Part shown: piece by piece, positions 4,213-44,047 of the stretch
Position numbering within the stretch: position 1 is the first letter of the stretch
Layout: every line of letters begins with the position of its first letter
From: a virus
DNA length: 64,000 nt
Virus record (IMG/VR): IMGVR_UViG_3300021364_000012
Span: 1-64,000 of that record
Strand: one strand, 5' to 3'
Notes under the pieces: generated by a model
Database searches by the model: none
What the model saw: only the letters and a program-made list of their open reading frames with translations
What the model was told of the DNA's origin: nothing
Program-made: the position numbers and the translations under genes

Positions 4213-5163
4213 TCAGTAGATTACGTCTTTTATTTCAAAGCCACCCTCTTCATCGAAGAAAGAAAACTCTTTCACTTCAAAAGAACAAACGGGGCTTTCA
4301 ATGTCTGAATTAATGTCAACGCCTAAGAAGCTCGCTTCTTCTGGGATGATGTACAAGACCATCTTTTTATTTTTAAGGTCTAAAAGTATCTGTGAGCTAG
4401 TGTACATGTTGTCGGTCTTACGGACAACATTGAACGGACTATCTAAATCTACATATTTCTGCGAATACAAAGAGGGGGCTATTTCTTCTATTTTAAGATT
4501 GGGCAAAGTATCAAGCGTGATCTGCATCCTACGCTTACTACTCTCTGCATTCTCTCCCAAGGTATATCCAGCATCAGGATACTTCGACCCATGATTACTA
4601 CGAACTAAGATTTCATCTTGAGCTATTTCTTGAAAATAAGGTGCGTGTTTCGCAGTGTGCTCAAGAGAAAAAGCACGAAGCCCATCTGAAACAATAGTAT
4701 GTCCTCTAATACCACCTTCAAAAGACACTAGCTCTTCCATCGCTTCTTCAAGCGTCTTACATTCTAAGGCTCTCAGAATTCTTCTAGCGTCTTTAGAGCC
4801 TATTGCACCAAGAACTGCCCCTTCACCTTTTTTCTTACCTGCCTTCCCTTCTTTCTCATCCCAAAGAACCATCAAAGCGGAGTTAACAAGTCCAATACCA
4901 AACTCATTGACACCTTCAACCCAACCAGTGTTTTCGTCTTTCATATAGACAATCTCAACACCTCTTGAAATCGTATGGTAAATCTTAAGTTCAGGAGAGT
5001 AATTTCTATCTCTATTTTTAAAGAGCACTCTATGCCCTTCTGAATTGACGTGTGCTATCACGCAGGCTTTCTTTTGAATGCTGCGGTAAATGTGAGTCTC
5101 TGCCACTTTCAGTCTTGAAAGTTTCTTGCTCGCTATTTTTGTAATTTCACTAGAAATAGCCAT
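4213..5163 (-). CDS. Ntn-hydrolase (C45/acyltransferase-like) with a 33-aa basic propeptide
   Basis: C34-VIAH...LFKNRDR, EGVNEFG, RSNH and SSKRR motifs of Cys-nucleophile Ntn hydrolases. Confidence 0.7.
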   Translation of the reverse strand: MAISSEITKIASKKLSRLKVAETHIYRSIQKKACVIAHVNSEGHRVLFKNRDRNYSPELKIYHTISRGVEIVYMKDENTGWVEGVNEFGIGLVNSALMVLWDEKEGKAGKKKGEGAVLGAIGSKDARRILRALECKTLEEAMEELVSFEGGIRGHTIVSDGLRAFSLEHTAKHAPYFQEIAQDEILVRSNHGSKYPDAGYTLGENAESSKRRMQITLDTLPNLKIEEIAPSLYSQKYVDLDSPFNVVRKTDNMYTSSQILLDLKNKKMVLYIIPEEASFLGVDINSDIESPVCSFEVKEFSFFDEEGGFEIKDVIY

Positions 5164-23740: not shown

Positions 23741-23764
23741 GAAGGACACTCTATTGGCTTCATT

Positions 23765-26674
23765 TTAGGGTGTCACGGCATCTACAAAGATACCTAAAGC
23801 CTTTGCCCAATTCTTACGCTTATATCTCTTGAGACTCACCCAAAAAGGACGATCTGAAACCCATTTGCGTATCTCGCTATTGAGCTTATCCGCACTAACC
23901 TTACGCCTCTTAAATTCTGTGACCTCATCGAGGAGGCGAGAGTAAAACTCAATGTCATCCAAAGCATGAATAGAAATCAGCTCGGAGTCCATACCCTCTC
24001 TCGCATACTGTACTCTTAACTCTTTCTGTTTCTGTTTCATATCCAAACGAAACTTTTTTCCTCTTGTTTGACCTGGTAACCCTGCTTCCTCTATGTTCGC
24101 TTTGTTAGCGTAATGCTGTTGCATGGCGTGGACTAGCTCATGTCCTGCTATCGTTTCCCGATCTTGTAGATACCTGAGAGGGAGTTCAGTCATATTCTTG
24201 AGAACATTAAAGATGATGTGGTGAATACCATCCCAATAATAGTTAGCTGCACCATGTGAGGACTCTTGAAGATGCACTGCGATTAAACCTAGTTCATCAT
24301 CTTCAATGTAGTATCTACCTCCGTCTTTAACCTTGTACTTTGACAGTCGCTCAACCGCTTCTAGGTAATCATCACGCATTATGGCGAGGATGTATTTCTT
24401 ATCCCCTGTTGTCCATTTTTTAAGCTCACGAATTATTTCGATTTGCATGTCTGAGATCGTCCCAATGAGAGCCTTATTCCCTCTTGGGTTATTAAAGATG
24501 CTCTGTGCATCAAGTTGATCTACTTTTGCCTTAAGCTTATAGAAATCAGGGTAGGTAAGATTTGCAGACTTTAACTGATCTGCTATTTCTGAAAACGCAC
24601 GTTGTGCGTTATTTACTTGGAAGATGACCTCTTCCTCATCATGCTCACCTCTTTTGACCCCAAGGGGTAGGTATCCAAGGTCTTCAAGTATCCATTCAAG
24701 ACCCTCAACGGACTCAGCGTTCAGCCCCCCTTTGGAGCTATCCTCTTTTTCCCTTCTAAGCCAGTATTGGGCGAGTAAGCCTTTACCTATTTCTGATACT
24801 TGGTCGATGAGATGTTGTGGGGGTCTGATTAATCCTGCTTTTCTTAAAGGAGAGCCGTTGTTCTCAAAACCACTGTCATAAGGTATGACTCTAGCAGAAC
24901 CGCTACCACTATCATGCACATAACCTAAATCTAAGTTATTAGCGGGCTTTCTGCCATTAGCCTCTGACTTGTCAAGATTACGATACTTCAAGTTCGGAGA
25001 GTCGGGGGAAGGTCTGCCAATATTTCTAGCAGTGTCTCCATTCGGTAAAGAGCTTCTGTTTTTACCTTTAGGATTCTCTGAATCTCCGACAGGAGTCCCT
25101 GTCGTAAAGCTAGAAAGAGAGTCGGGTGGCGAGACTTCCCTATAGAACTCAGCTCTCTTATTGATTTTACTATTTCTCTCATAGAGCCGTTTAGCTAGTA
25201 GAACACCTGCCTCATTATCTGAATAATAATGGACTCCACGATCTATCCGAGACTGTGCCACCATATTTGCCACCTCTAATAACTCTCGCCTTAAAGAGGG
25301 GTATTTCTCAGATAGCAAATAAGCAACATAATACGCCTGTGTCGTATGTCCACTAGGATATGAAGGAGTCTGTGCTGACTCTAAGTAGTCAAACTTAAAG
25401 TCAAAACCGTACATTTGTGCGAGCACGTTTGGTCGAACGACGTTGAAATAGTTTTTATGGGAATAAATAATATCTGATATTTCTTCCATAGTATTTCTAA
25501 TAGTAACAGCGTCCTCTGAAATACCATATTCACTTAAAAGAGAAGAAAAAAGATACTCTGATTTCTGATCTAAAAAGTAACGGAGACTCTCGGAGTTATA
25601 TTTATTCTCATATTGATGAGAGATTAAAGGCAACTCACTGAGTAAATACTCATAAGTAGGTGGGCTAGGGATCAAAATCTCAGTAAGATTCGCCTTCTTC
25701 TTCTTGATCTCTTTAGCCTCCTCACTAAAAGTCGGAGTGTTAACAGGCTTTTGCCCACGATGTTTAGCCTCTTCCCTCCTCTTATTCTTAGCAAGCTCTG
25801 CCCTTTCTTCTTTGGGCATCCCGTATGCTTTTTCTCTTGGCATACATTTGAGGGGTTTCTTTCCGTTGCTTGTAACAGTAGCCCATTCTTTCGTACTAGA
25901 CACGCCGCATGGGCCAACAATGTCACCTGGTTCATACTCTTTCTCGTCTCCGTCTTTTTTCTTAACAGTGTGTTTGATTGGAGTGATAGCGATCCAATCC
26001 CCCCAAGTAGCTCGCTCATCGGGTTTACCACCACCATGCCCCGAGAACCAAGTATCTAAGCCACCATGCCCCGTATTTTTCATTTTAGAGTCATCTCGCT
26101 TCGACACCTTCAAGTATCGAGAAACAATTTTAGTACCCATATCTTGACTCTTAGAGCCTGTTTTGCCCCCATAGCAGTCAACATATGGACGACAAGAAGC
26201 CTTCTCTGAGAACCCCATGTCCTCACAACTCTTAGACTCACAATGCTCTCTATCCCACTTACGAGGCATCTTGTACGAGGTGTCTTTCCCCGAAGAGTTC
26301 TTTCTCAGAGAAGGATTTCTGAGCATGGTATCTCTTGTCCTGAAATCCTTGTTCCTACCCTTGTTAGGCTTGAACCCAAATCTCCTATAAAATTTAGTCA
26401 AACGAGACACCGAACTAGCACCAAAGTCTGTGGAGGGAGAAAGAGATAACATAACCCCATTATCATCTGCCCAAGAGATAATCTGAGACATAACCTCTGA
26501 GCCTAAGCCTCGTTTTCGGTTTTCAGAGGGAATCTGAACTGTCATGATCCTGACGATAGGGGCGTGATATTCATCGCCACTCGATAGGAAAGAAGTCCAT
26601 AAGACAAGACCCTGATATTGGCTCTCTAAGTTACCTTCTAGTGTCTTTAGCGATTGCTCTAAAGTAGGCGACAT
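23765..26674 (-). CDS. Multidomain protein: GNAT-like + Cys peptide + DUF5872-like half + PAP2 phosphatase + HExxH metallopeptidase-like domain
   Basis: 'RKRGLGS...FYRRFGF' (GNAT); 'VRP...TPSYPSGH...SRI.RGVHY.SD' (PAP2); 'GHELVHAMQ'. Confidence 0.75.
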   Translation of the reverse strand: MSPTLEQSLKTLEGNLESQYQGLVLWTSFLSSGDEYHAPIVRIMTVQIPSENRKRGLGSEVMSQIISWADDNGVMLSLSPSTDFGASSVSRLTKFYRRFGFKPNKGRNKDFRTRDTMLRNPSLRKNSSGKDTSYKMPRKWDREHCESKSCEDMGFSEKASCRPYVDCYGGKTGSKSQDMGTKIVSRYLKVSKRDDSKMKNTGHGGLDTWFSGHGGGKPDERATWGDWIAITPIKHTVKKKDGDEKEYEPGDIVGPCGVSSTKEWATVTSNGKKPLKCMPREKAYGMPKEERAELAKNKRREEAKHRGQKPVNTPTFSEEAKEIKKKKANLTEILIPSPPTYEYLLSELPLISHQYENKYNSESLRYFLDQKSEYLFSSLLSEYGISEDAVTIRNTMEEISDIIYSHKNYFNVVRPNVLAQMYGFDFKFDYLESAQTPSYPSGHTTQAYYVAYLLSEKYPSLRRELLEVANMVAQSRIDRGVHYYSDNEAGVLLAKRLYERNSKINKRAEFYREVSPPDSLSSFTTGTPVGDSENPKGKNRSSLPNGDTARNIGRPSPDSPNLKYRNLDKSEANGRKPANNLDLGYVHDSGSGSARVIPYDSGFENNGSPLRKAGLIRPPQHLIDQVSEIGKGLLAQYWLRREKEDSSKGGLNAESVEGLEWILEDLGYLPLGVKRGEHDEEEVIFQVNNAQRAFSEIADQLKSANLTYPDFYKLKAKVDQLDAQSIFNNPRGNKALIGTISDMQIEIIRELKKWTTGDKKYILAIMRDDYLEAVERLSKYKVKDGGRYYIEDDELGLIAVHLQESSHGAANYYWDGIHHIIFNVLKNMTELPLRYLQDRETIAGHELVHAMQQHYANKANIEEAGLPGQTRGKKFRLDMKQKQKELRVQYAREGMDSELISIHALDDIEFYSRLLDEVTEFKRRKVSADKLNSEIRKWVSDRPFWVSLKRYKRKNWAKALGIFVDAVTP

Positions 26675-29255: not shown

Positions 29256-29473
29256 GTGATTACGAAAAAATAGACCATCCAGATCATTATCAAGGCGTAA
29301 ATATGGAAGCCATTGATGTGATAGAACAGTATAATCTTAACTTCTCATTAGGGTCGGCTCTTAAATATATTTTAAGAGCAGGAAAGAAACCTAATGAGAA
29401 AGCATCTGAAGACCTCAAGAAAGCAGTATGGTATCTCCAAAGGGAGATAAGCAGAAAAGGAGAAAGCAATTGA
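29252..29473 (+). CDS. DUF3310 (SaV-like) protein
   Basis: DHPDHY...EAIDVI...F.LG.ALKY..RAGKK...EDLKKA.WYL. Confidence 0.9.
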   Translation: MSDYEKIDHPDHYQGVNMEAIDVIEQYNLNFSLGSALKYILRAGKKPNEKASEDLKKAVWYLQREISRKGESN

Positions 29474-30489
29474 ACTACATTGCAGAATACTTATGGATTG
29501 ACGGGGGGAACCCAACATCAAGAATAAGGTCTAAGACCAAAGTTTTTGAGACAGACAAAGAATTAAGCTTAGAGGTTTTCCCTGAGTGGTCTTTTGATGG
29601 CTCTTCTACAGAACAAGCAGTAGGAAATAACTCAGACTGCGTTCTAAGACCTGTGTTCTTTTGTTTCGATCCTACAAGGAAGGGAGTCAACACTGTCATC
29701 GTCCTATGTGAAGTGTACGATGTAGATGGAAACCCACACCCTTCAAACCATCGAGCTAAGTTAAGAGAGACTCTTAACCAAAAGCCTAACCTCGACGCTT
29801 GGGTAGGTTTTGAACAAGAATACACTCTATTTCTTGGATCAAGACCTTTAGGATTTCCTTCAGAAAGAAGATTCCCTCCCGCACAAGGTCCTTATTATTG
29901 TGGCGTTGGTGCAGATGAAGTATCTGGAAGAGAACTTGTAGAAGAGCACCTCAACGCATGTATTTCTGCTGAAATACCAATCACAGGGATCAATGCTGAA
30001 GTGATGCCGGGTCAGTGGGAGTTTCAAATCGGAGGACCTGGAGTAGACCCACTTACAGGTTCAGATTGTCTATGGGTGGCTCGTTGGTTGCTCTATAGAC
30101 TTGGAGAGAAATACAATATTTCTGCGACTCTCGAACCTAAGCCCGTGACTGGAGATTGGAACGGTGCAGGTATGCACACAAATTTCTCAACAGAGTCTAC
30201 AAGAGCAGAAGGAGGTCTTTCAGTGATAGAGCAAATCATGCACACCATGAAAGAAAGAATCTCTGAACACCTTGCAGAATACGGAGAAGGTTACGAAATA
30301 CGTCTCACCGGCAAGCATGAGACTTGTCGATATGACGAGTTTAAATGGGGAGTGTCAGACAGAACTGCGTCTGTAAGAATCCCCGTGACCACATCCAAAG
30401 AAGGAAAAGGCTACTTTGAAGATAGAAGACCCAACGCCAACGCAGACCCATACAGAGTCGCTAGAGTTATCGTTGAGTCCTCTAAATAA
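29470..30489 (+). CDS. glnII: Glutamine synthetase, type II
   Basis: AEYLWIDG, RSKTK, WSFDGSST.QA, GFEQEY, QGPYYCGVG, NAEVMPGQWEFQIG, DWNGAGMHTNFST, EDRRP; TTG start. Confidence 0.92.
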   Translation: MNYIAEYLWIDGGNPTSRIRSKTKVFETDKELSLEVFPEWSFDGSSTEQAVGNNSDCVLRPVFFCFDPTRKGVNTVIVLCEVYDVDGNPHPSNHRAKLRETLNQKPNLDAWVGFEQEYTLFLGSRPLGFPSERRFPPAQGPYYCGVGADEVSGRELVEEHLNACISAEIPITGINAEVMPGQWEFQIGGPGVDPLTGSDCLWVARWLLYRLGEKYNISATLEPKPVTGDWNGAGMHTNFSTESTRAEGGLSVIEQIMHTMKERISEHLAEYGEGYEIRLTGKHETCRYDEFKWGVSDRTASVRIPVTTSKEGKGYFEDRRPNANADPYRVARVIVESSK

Positions 30490-42370: not shown

Positions 42371-44047
42371 TTAGAATCTTCCGTCATCACCCTCATCCGG
42401 AGGAGTATATTTCAAACCAATATTCTGAGCAATCTTCTCTATTACTTCAGTGTTCTCAGCGAGCATACGTCCTGCTTCTCCATAAATACCACGGAGAACT
42501 TCATTGAACTGAGAGTCGTTGAGAGTCCACATATCTCTCTCTAGCTTTCTCTTAGTTGACTCAGGGTCAACATTCAAAAGCTCAAGGATAATGTCAATAT
42601 CCAAAGAACCCTTCTGATAAAGATTAAAGAGAGCATCGAAGGTGTCTTGGTTATCTCTCAAACCAAGACGAGTAAAGCTAAGACTTGGATGAACGACTAT
42701 TTCCTCCCCATCGTCATCTTCTTCTATGAAGCCCATGCGTCTGCACATCGGCTTCAAGATGTTCTCCTCTACCATCTCTTGAAGAACTTCACGCATCAGC
42801 ATGTAGCGTGTATTGATCACTTCAAGATTGATACGATCTCCACTATAGCTCGACTCCCCTGAAAGTAGAGACTCAGTTACGCCAAGACCTGCATACATCT
42901 GTCTGTCGGTCATGTCATACTCTGAGCCAAGGTCAAGAAGACGTTGGTCTGACCCCATCTCTTCCCAAGAAATTTGAAAGTTAGCTATGATAGAGTAATC
43001 GGGGTCTTGAAGAGCTAAATCCACTTGCTCTCTCAAGGCTTCGACATCTGCCATGTCCATATCTTCTGCATAAACCAACCGAATAGGCGTCATATGTCGA
43101 GAAGCAATAGAGGTGTTAGCTTGCCTCAACTTATCTCTGTACACCAATATTCTGAGACAACGCTCCAACATAGAGTGTCCTCTCGGCTCGTATTGGGATT
43201 TCTTACGAGCCATATAATAAACAAAAGAACCCTTCTCGGCATCACTATTTAAAGGGATATTTCTCCCTTCCCGAATAGCATCCACCACATCTTCAGGCAT
43301 CGACTCCACAATTCTCATTGCTTCAGGGTCTTGGACAGAAGCTCTCTCCACGACATTCTTAGTCTTAGAATCAGGAATAAGCTCTATGATTTTTTGATCT
43401 GTAAAAGGAAAAGACTCCATATGTACTTGCTCTGGAGGAAGCACACGAATACCTGTCCAACCCTTGTAGTTTTTCTTCATCCAAACATAAGCACGATCAT
43501 CAGCGTCTTCATATCTCTCCCAAAGAACTTCAATCTCTCCATCGGGAGTAAGCTGATTCTTTTTTTTATGTGTAACTTCTTTAGGCATGTCTGGATTATT
43601 GTCTTCACAAAAAACAAAAACCTCACCTAGAAGATTATACTCATGCAATATTTCTATGAGACGGTGGAGCAACCCCACTCTTCTTGCCCATTTCTCACAA
43701 AAACGAAGAGAAGCCCAAGCCATCTCTCTATTCTTAGACTTAGGCATACCAAGTCTAATCTTGGAAAGCGGTAGCTCCGTGTGAAGGTCTACAGCTTGAC
43801 CCACGAAAGGGTCTGTCCGATAGAAGAAACGGAAATAATTACGTTGTTCGTCTTGGCTCTGCGGAAGCTCTAAAAAATCCGTAGATAGCTCTGGAGAATA
43901 AAAGTTACCTCCGGAACCCATCTGTGTTCCACTCGTTGTCATCGCCACTTTAACACGGGACTTCATCTGAGAAGGCTTAAGAGGTCGAGTAGTTACGTCT
44001 CCTTTAGTCTTAACTTCTCCTACTTTTAAAGGCTCATCACTAGACAT
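42371..44047 (-). CDS. Portal protein
   Basis: 558 aa just downstream of terL; 'RFFY.TDPFV..AVDLHTELPLSK', 'GEVFVF', 'GLGVTESLLSGE'. Confidence 0.85.
   Translation of the reverse strand: MSSDEPLKVGEVKTKGDVTTRPLKPSQMKSRVKVAMTTSGTQMGSGGNFYSPELSTDFLELPQSQDEQRNYFRFFYRTDPFVGQAVDLHTELPLSKIRLGMPKSKNREMAWASLRFCEKWARRVGLLHRLIEILHEYNLLGEVFVFCEDNNPDMPKEVTHKKKNQLTPDGEIEVLWERYEDADDRAYVWMKKNYKGWTGIRVLPPEQVHMESFPFTDQKIIELIPDSKTKNVVERASVQDPEAMRIVESMPEDVVDAIREGRNIPLNSDAEKGSFVYYMARKKSQYEPRGHSMLERCLRILVYRDKLRQANTSIASRHMTPIRLVYAEDMDMADVEALREQVDLALQDPDYSIIANFQISWEEMGSDQRLLDLGSEYDMTDRQMYAGLGVTESLLSGESSYSGDRINLEVINTRYMLMREVLQEMVEENILKPMCRRMGFIEEDDDGEEIVVHPSLSFTRLGLRDNQDTFDALFNLYQKGSLDIDIILELLNVDPESTKRKLERDMWTLNDSQFNEVLRGIYGEAGRMLAENTEVIEKIAQNIGLKYTPPDEGDDGRF

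Follow-up and report, generated by a model that had tools for sequence, protein, structure and literature searches.

A shuffled multi-module polyvalent protein from an uncultured huge myophage as a probable protease-processed capsid-cargo polyprotein

The gene P0001 of the IMG/VR virus record IMGVR_UViG_3300021364_000012 encodes a protein of 969 amino acids (aa) built from six unrelated modules, named A to F (Table 1). It is considered fairly probable that this product belongs to the polyvalent proteins as defined by Iyer, Burroughs, Anand, de Souza and Aravind (2017, PMC5512222), and that it serves a huge myophage as capsid cargo, made as a polyprotein and processed by a protease. The record is a 75.9-kb fragment from an uncultured phage, and the window analyzed here is its first 64 kb. 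Modules are shuffled among the relatives of P0001 and are gained and lost as cassettes, and a short basic motif ending in alanine is placed at the module borders. Polyvalent proteins are regarded as the earliest weapons that a phage deploys, and the release of their domains has so far been guesswork. The junction motif and the natural cassette swaps make the processing hypothesis directly testable. If the junction code is true, the virion cargo of uncultured huge phages would become predictable from sequence alone.

An earlier note, made from the letters of this stretch, had described P0001 as a five-module polyprotein whose unrelated enzyme domains are strung together by basic linkers. The open reading frame (ORF) is real and its modules are unrelated, but their number is six. 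Comparison by BLASTP with 240 homologues (120 + 120) from a metagenomic collection of 5.8 billion proteins revealed sharp, recurrent homology breakpoints, which delimit these units. The note had named shuffled or free-standing modules in relatives as a check on its proposal, and a fixed architecture as the outcome that would speak against it. Shuffling and free-standing forms were both found. The units occur in every order in the relatives, e.g., E-A-B-C, F-C-E-A, B-D-C, and C-F-F, and some stand alone, as D does commonly in forms of ~185 aa, C in 156 aa, and F in 389-400 aa. They are fused with Fe/Mn superoxide dismutase (SOD), Dps/DUF5856, topoisomerase IB, PolyA_pol/CCA-adding enzyme, 2H phosphoesterases, RNA ligase, LPD1, and ART-PolyVal. 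As judged by homology, the modules are independent far beyond chance. An assembly chimera or a mis-called fusion was rejected as the origin of P0001, the ORF being unbroken and orthologous multi-module genes being present on many independent contigs.

Gain and loss of cassettes can be followed at the locus itself. In the relative L002, the DNA is 96-99% identical to the window over the flanks and modules B-E, and the orthologous gene encodes only 489 aa with the composition B-C-D-E. Modules A and F are missing with clean cassette borders. Module A (window 26276-26668) is swapped for 9 nucleotides (nt) at the junction, and module F (window 23744-24836) for 20 nt, the protein ending 5 residues past LRKA. 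At the same locus, other phages carry proteins of 877 or 794 aa with different module orders, in which P0001 modules are fused with modules of the 653-aa gene found upstream in the window (P0286). In L004 and L008, modules of P0286 are joined to F-like or B-C modules. In the 75.9-kb record, P0001 has its 100% self-match only once. Megablast of the P0001 region against deposited phages gave zero matches. In tblastn searches of 50,697 deposited phage records, modules C and F alone had no match and module D only weak generic PAP2 matches; for modules B and E, which were covered only by the whole-protein search, no relatives appeared in these records.

The borders between modules carry a common signal. 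The motif [KR][KR]A occurs exactly three times in P0001, ending at residues 328, 508, and 613, which are the C/D, D/E, and E/F breakpoints (a slash marks the border in the motifs below). In 20,000 shuffles, three motifs fell this close to breakpoints (5 residues or less) with a frequency of 2e-4. Module ends in the relatives consist of two basic residues and A, S, or G followed by S, G, D, or N, regardless of the module that comes next, and a recurrent linker, S..RVAxRYL, contains R-V-A. Among 50 distinct contexts preceding module E, position P3 is K or R in 43, and P1 is A in 37 and S in the other 13; the C-terminal end of this module in the relatives reads LR[KN]A/[GS]. In proteins that begin with E, DFYR is nevertheless preceded by one of 10 different short leaders (MRRKHA, MKKIVA, MTTKRA, and others). 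The retention of a leader in front of an N-terminal E is difficult to account for if it is not cleaved off, as a mere linker would be superfluous in this position.

The same motif extends to genes of head assembly. In the 75.9-kb record, [KR][KR]A[SGDN] is enriched, with 16 occurrences versus 5.9 +/- 2.4 in shuffles, and control motifs of permuted order occur 6-10 times. The prohead protease, which is the candidate processing enzyme, contains V-K-x-A/S at aa 369-373, near its C-terminal region, and this site is conserved across 25 homologues. The neighboring 760-aa ORF, a probable scaffold, carries [KR]-x-A at 12 sites, with conservation of the ones at aa 13, 117, and 229. R-R-A13 was found in 21/21 sequences, as was K or R at P3 of site 229. 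In an AAT/Ntn-hydrolase-like ORF (4213-5163), whose AAT match is weak (21.2 bits vs the cut-off of 23.2), QKKA lies directly before the putative nucleophile, Cys34 (QKKA/C34). The same AAT module is internal to a metagenomic polyprotein of 1879 aa (P0289), composed of 2H esterase, PSAYAN, SOD, DUF5661, and AAT, where it is preceded by VKTA/C. The protein P0286 has three junction sites, RKA/S, RRA/S, and KKKA/S. A substrate of the prohead protease would be expected to share its motif with the scaffold and the protease and to bear it at module borders, and at the level of sequence this is what was found. The major capsid protein, sought in order to look for a propeptide site, was not identified in the record of this phage, and a 971-aa ORF received no assignment.

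Some observations weigh against processing at these sites. The A/B and B/C borders are devoid of a canonical site, as the C-terminal border of module A is degenerate (LRKN126/SS) and that of module B reads KIV/SRYL, which places N or V at P1. In some relatives Ala is replaced by T, S, or G, or the strict motif is absent. The junction motifs travel with the modules, and their conservation is partly inheritance. The prohead protease of 449 aa had no match in Pfam or the PDB and could be placed in no MEROPS or Pfam family; virion packaging of P0001, its cleavage, the enzyme responsible, and injection are themselves inferred. The polyvalent protein might also be packaged and delivered intact, with basic-x-Ala stretches acting as flexible linkers or recombination joints. 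Some polyvalent proteins are delivered uncut, full-length transfer being described for N4 vRNAP and TraC1/Sog (PMC5512222). The junctions are rich in Lys codons (AAA/AAG), the indels of L002 are replacements at the joints, and such A-rich codons could be recombination hot spots and not cleavage signals. Nevertheless, intact delivery is regarded as unlikely, because it leaves unexplained the short basic-x-Ala leaders that persist when E is N-terminal, the conservation of the motif in scaffold and protease, and the placement of K-x-A exactly before the Ntn nucleophile, a residue that needs an N-terminal position to work.

If P0001 is processed, its own module F could be responsible. In this explanation the zincin would cut the polyprotein in cis or in trans and the prohead protease would be uninvolved. 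The HELVH motif, which the earlier note had reported as intact, was confirmed at 845-849, and 29 relatives share its H, E, and H without exception. The AlphaFold2 (AF2) model of the module is confidently folded (pLDDT 92.3) and comprises a four-helix bundle and a beta/alpha domain bearing HExxH. Autoproteolytic release by metallopeptidase domains has been predicted for polyvalent proteins (PMC5512222). Self-processing is nonetheless quite unlikely, because many relatives, including the nearly identical L002, keep the same junction motifs and have no module F. The module is also rare (50 clusters among 1.84e9 representatives), and the presence of the motif in the scaffold, the protease, and the Ntn leader fits a general head protease. 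Module F is more likely to be an effector than a processing enzyme.

Q, G-P, and L-D-E-F are further invariant positions of module F, and the segment HALDDxEF is conserved. Candidates for the third metal ligand are H903, D907, and E909; in the 29 sequences D907 and E909 are invariant and H903 is nearly so. Foldseek searches against PDB and BFVD returned nothing at E<=1e-3, the PDB profile search gave only helical-bundle noise, and the list from a VIA-wide structure search was filled by the N-terminal four-helix bundle. The Atlas model weakly resembles the BSP, M48, M78, SprT/WLM, and M56 zincin clusters (TM 0.22-0.40), and the HExxH domain belongs to no named metallopeptidase (MPTase) family.

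The position of P0001 bears on whether it is virion cargo. CheckV assigns the record a completeness of ~24%, which implies a genome of ~300 kb. Almost every gene of the window is carried by the minus strand, and P0001 lies between the tail-sheath gene and the protease, portal, and terminase genes, all in the same orientation. To judge from the flanking sheath, head, portal, and terminase genes and from the kinship of the portal, the setting is the structural gene block of a huge myophage. The product might instead remain in the cytoplasm as a multi-enzyme or polyprotein that reprograms the host or protects phage DNA and is never injected. Activities of the PAP2, SOD, and Dps type could work inside an infected cell, and the packaging of P0001 is deduced from its context and motifs. 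Such a cytoplasmic role is very unlikely, given that the gene is part of a structural block and that polyprotein genes adjoin the portal gene in the relatives L003 and L008. It is also at odds with the occurrence of its modules in virion-associated polyvalent proteins (DarB-like and PLxRFG) and with a motif held in common with head-assembly proteins.

In the proposed mechanism of processed cargo, the six modules are taken to fold and evolve separately, and a late-expressed P0001 precursor would enter the prohead alongside its 653-aa Dps/protamine-like neighbor. The prohead protease would then cut after the junction Ala and would make like cuts in the scaffold and in itself. The three strong sites predict the products aa 1-328 (possibly cut further), 329-508 (PAP2), 509-613, and 614-969. 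The freed modules would remain in the capsid with the DNA, reach the host at injection, and act ahead of any phage gene expression. The soluble broad-range phosphatase, the RimI-like acetyltransferase, and the peptidase could each put host factors out of action. In the relatives, the antioxidant and RNA-repair partners hint that the incoming genome is protected and that cleaved tRNA is repaired. The earlier note had envisaged a cassette of injected host-takeover or anti-defense enzymes released by proteolysis; modularity and a processing signal now speak for this proposal, while injection and a role against defense keep the conditional form they had there.

A broader and tentative view, held to be possible rather than probable, is that a clade of uncultured huge phages has programmable cargo, with arbitrary enzyme cassettes assembled in polyproteins, the capsid-maturation protease resolving them at [KR]-x-A/, and module E as the common element. 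The cassettes would comprise phosphatase, acetyltransferase, SOD, Dps, topoisomerase IB, RNA-repair enzymes, and Ntn hydrolase. Module E would load the polyprotein into the prohead, or would escort cargo and DNA out of it. If this view is correct, a double-stranded DNA (dsDNA) phage would for the first time be seen to use polyproteins with a defined junction code, the fold of module C would be new, and module F would found a new family of zincins.

The basic stretches of P0001 had been taken for linkers, yet the stretch 509-613 turned out to be the best-conserved module. It has 42 invariant columns and 59-88% identity among 8 related phages, and it retains 75-83% identity where the other modules of the relatives have only 30-65%. 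Module E was found at 31 IMG/VR loci (L053-L083), in a single copy per contig and always within a polyprotein of variable make-up. It looks intrinsically disordered, with 75% disorder-promoting residues, and had no Pfam or PDB profile match. Its single occurrence per contig and a conservation beyond that of any enzyme module point to an essential function in structure or targeting, and it may, for example, be a peptide for capsid targeting or ejection.

Internal head proteins that are processed during assembly are known from other phages. In T4, IPI-III and Alt are cut by gp21 at L/I-x-E, and the head proteins of phiKZ and SPN3US are cut at S/A/G-x-E (gp175/gp245). The cargo of T4, phiKZ, and SPN3US is encoded by separate genes with an N-terminal propeptide, whereas here several cargos would derive from one precursor. 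The motif also differs, being x-x-Glu/ in those phages and, as read from the sequence, basic-x-Ala/ here. Cargo of this kind is taken up into the prohead, where the maturation protease trims it at a short motif, and it leaves together with the DNA at ejection; huge phages contain tens of such proteins (PMC10052503, PMC5694885).

Polyvalent proteins have been described from phages and conjugative elements, with DarB and DdrB of P1 and the PLxRFG giants as examples, and their signature domains include the LPD families and ART-PolyVal (PMC5512222). P0001 resembles them in joining unrelated effector domains in one chain, in its variable architectures, and in the location of its genes beside head and portal genes. 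A GNAT family common with the ART-PolyVal/LPD22 giants, a putative metallopeptidase domain, and a predicted role in the first minutes of infection are further points of likeness. In contrast to them, P0001 has small modules, and a conserved [KR]-x-A junction marks these off. Pfam gave no LPD or ART match for P0001, which also lacks a MuF, helicase, or methylase backbone, and its processing appears to rely on the general head protease and not on a built-in peptidase. The terms 'PAP2' and 'superoxide dismutase' have zero occurrences in PMC5512222. The category of polyvalent proteins is known, and the new elements would be the junction code common to scaffold, protease, and zymogen, and the polyprotein mode of release. 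Also new would be the exchange of cassettes between near-identical huge phages, PAP2 as cargo, and, in the relatives, SOD and Dps as cargo. To these are added three uncharacterized modules, i.e., C with no solved relative, the rare putative zincin F, and the conserved, apparently disordered E. The cargo repertoire would be widened by a soluble acid phosphatase and, in the relatives, by antioxidant and RNA-repair enzymes.

Processed polyproteins are known from other biological systems. In MARTX toxins, effectors are freed by a cysteine protease domain, and the polyproteins of picornaviruses are likewise processed. Both can be seen as functional analogues, in which a single translation product delivers several activities once it has been cut at specific sites, and strains exchange cassettes. 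They have no homology to P0001, whose carrier would be the capsid of a dsDNA phage and whose protease would probably be the enzyme of capsid maturation.

Module A is a GNAT-like acetyltransferase, as had been proposed from its sequence. The acetyl-CoA motif A (R53-K-R-G56-L-G58) is present, and the module matches phrog_10691 (E 1.8e-20) and has kin in DarB-like and PLxRFG proteins. The assignment falls short of Pfam standards, as the GNAT matches are below the gathering cut-offs (20-23 bits vs 27 and 14-18 vs 20.7; PF13508/PF00583), with E 1e-4 for Acetyltransf_7. A sequence search of the PDB with this module gave no match. Its relatives carry PF13508/PF00583, and tblastn located the module within DarB-like antirestriction proteins and PLxRFG giants of cultured phages. 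It is also part of metagenomic giants with LPD22 and ART-PolyVal (e.g., P0291).

Module B (CX4CX10CX5C) probably binds Zn, to judge from its cysteine spacing. It is a separate homology unit, which in the relatives precedes C, precedes D, or comes last. Module C begins with the linker KIVSRYLKVS and finishes with KKKKA328. Foldseek and VIA searches with module C gave no convincing match, and no solved fold was detectable. Pfam, NCBIfam, and PHROGs had nothing for modules B, C, E, and F. The part between the Cys module and PAP2 had been described as a DUF5872-like half. DUF5872 (PF19197) had no match at E<=1 on the whole of P0001, nor at E<=5 on modules B and C, and what is left of this resemblance is transitive, through relatives in which the profile spans a distinct PSAYAN module and only the start of module C.

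Module D is a soluble PAP2 domain. The three motifs of the PAP2 triad, already noticed as intact, were all read in it (K407-x6-R414-P415, P440-S-G-H443, and S475-R-x5-H482-x3-D486), and the Pfam score is above the gathering value (46.6 bits vs 27.2, PF01569; E 2e-13). The closest relatives in the PDB are the acid phosphatases 7F18, 1D2T, 1IW8, and PhoN 2A96 (E 1e-6), in matches that span only ~100 residues, and the NCBIfam scores are far under the equivalog cut-offs. The module has the soluble PAP2 signature of class A acid phosphatases such as PhoC and PhoN (KX6RP, PSGH, SRX5HX3D), and differs from them in its size of ~180 aa, in having no signal peptide, and in being embedded in a phage polyprotein. 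The absence of a signal peptide had been remarked upon before and holds for all of P0001. A membrane PAP2 was considered and rejected, as the protein also has no hydrophobic or transmembrane segment (maximum KD19 0.75). In the relative P0084, module D co-occurs with LPD1.

Table 1. Features of P0001 and of neighboring genes in the window (coordinates of the window; slashes mark module borders)
Feature	Coordinates	Strand	Remarks
P0001, whole gene, 969 aa	23765..26674	(-)	ATG start, no internal stops; 6 modules
Module A, aa 1-128, GNAT-like acetyltransferase	26291..26674	(-)	Motif R53-x-x-G56-x-G58
Module B, aa 129-180, Cys mini-module	26135..26290	(-)	YKMPRKW...C145-x4-C150-x10-C161-x5-C167
Module C, aa 181-328, conserved module	25691..26134	(-)	GHGGLDxWF...GDIVGPCG...KCMPR...TPTF
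Module D, aa 329-508, soluble PAP2/class A acid-phosphatase-like	25151..25690	(-)	Ends NKRA508
Module E, aa 509-613, low-complexity peptide	24836..25150	(-)	EFYREVSPPDSL...ARNIGRPSPDSPNLKYRNLDKSEANGR...GYVHDSGSGSARVIPYDSGF...LRKA613
Module F, aa 614-969, four-helix bundle and HExxH zincin-like domain	23768..24835	(-)	H845 E846 H849
Junction C/D, K326-K-A328 / N329	25691..25699	(-)	KKKKA/N
Junction D/E, K506-R-A508 / E509	25151..25159	(-)	NKRA/E
Junction E/F, R611-K-A613 / G614	24836..24844	(-)	LRKA/G
P0286, 653 aa, directly upstream of P0001	26677..28638	(-)	Second polyvalent protein/polyprotein
Tail-sheath-type protein, 1587 aa	16725-21488		Sheath-family match at C-terminus
Acidic ORF downstream of protease, 760 aa	34822..37104	(-)	Probable scaffold
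Prohead (head maturation) protease, 449 aa	37136..38485	(-)	phrog_18299 and phrog_2774
Portal gene	42371-44047		71% identity to 485-kb uncultured phage LR745208.1
Large terminase, 1037 aa	44306-47419		LAGLIDADG intein inside

The upstream protein P0286 comprises a SQPFQDLAGVKTW module, two protamine-like Arg/Lys tracts, PSAYAN (the N-terminal half of DUF5872), and Dps/DUF5856. The 760-aa ORF contains 169 D/E versus 80 K/R and has DLMADE-type repeats, whose length varies among the relatives. It is probably a scaffold rather than a capsid protein; its candidacy as the major capsid protein was rejected, the ORF being acidic and scaffold-like with no match to such proteins. Distant kin of the portal are found in Tunturiibacter phage Tunturi_5 and Bacillus phage G. 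In the 1587-aa protein the sheath match is confined to the last ~300 residues, and its identity in the relatives is 50-97%. The terminase intein contains a LAGLIDADG homing endonuclease, the Pfam matches being Intein_splicing and LAGLIDADG_3.

Among the relatives, P0063, P0070, P0287, and P0288 are metagenomic polyproteins of up to 4243 aa. They combine eukaryotic-type topoisomerase IB, Fe/Mn SOD, PolyA_pol/CCA enzyme, PAP2, 2H ligase, and DUF5661, a cargo set that is unusual for phages. Within the structural block of the window, a glutamine synthetase gene (Gln-synt_N and Gln-synt_C) is located at 29428-30489 on the opposite strand, and this gene is also kept in the relatives L002, L004, and L010.

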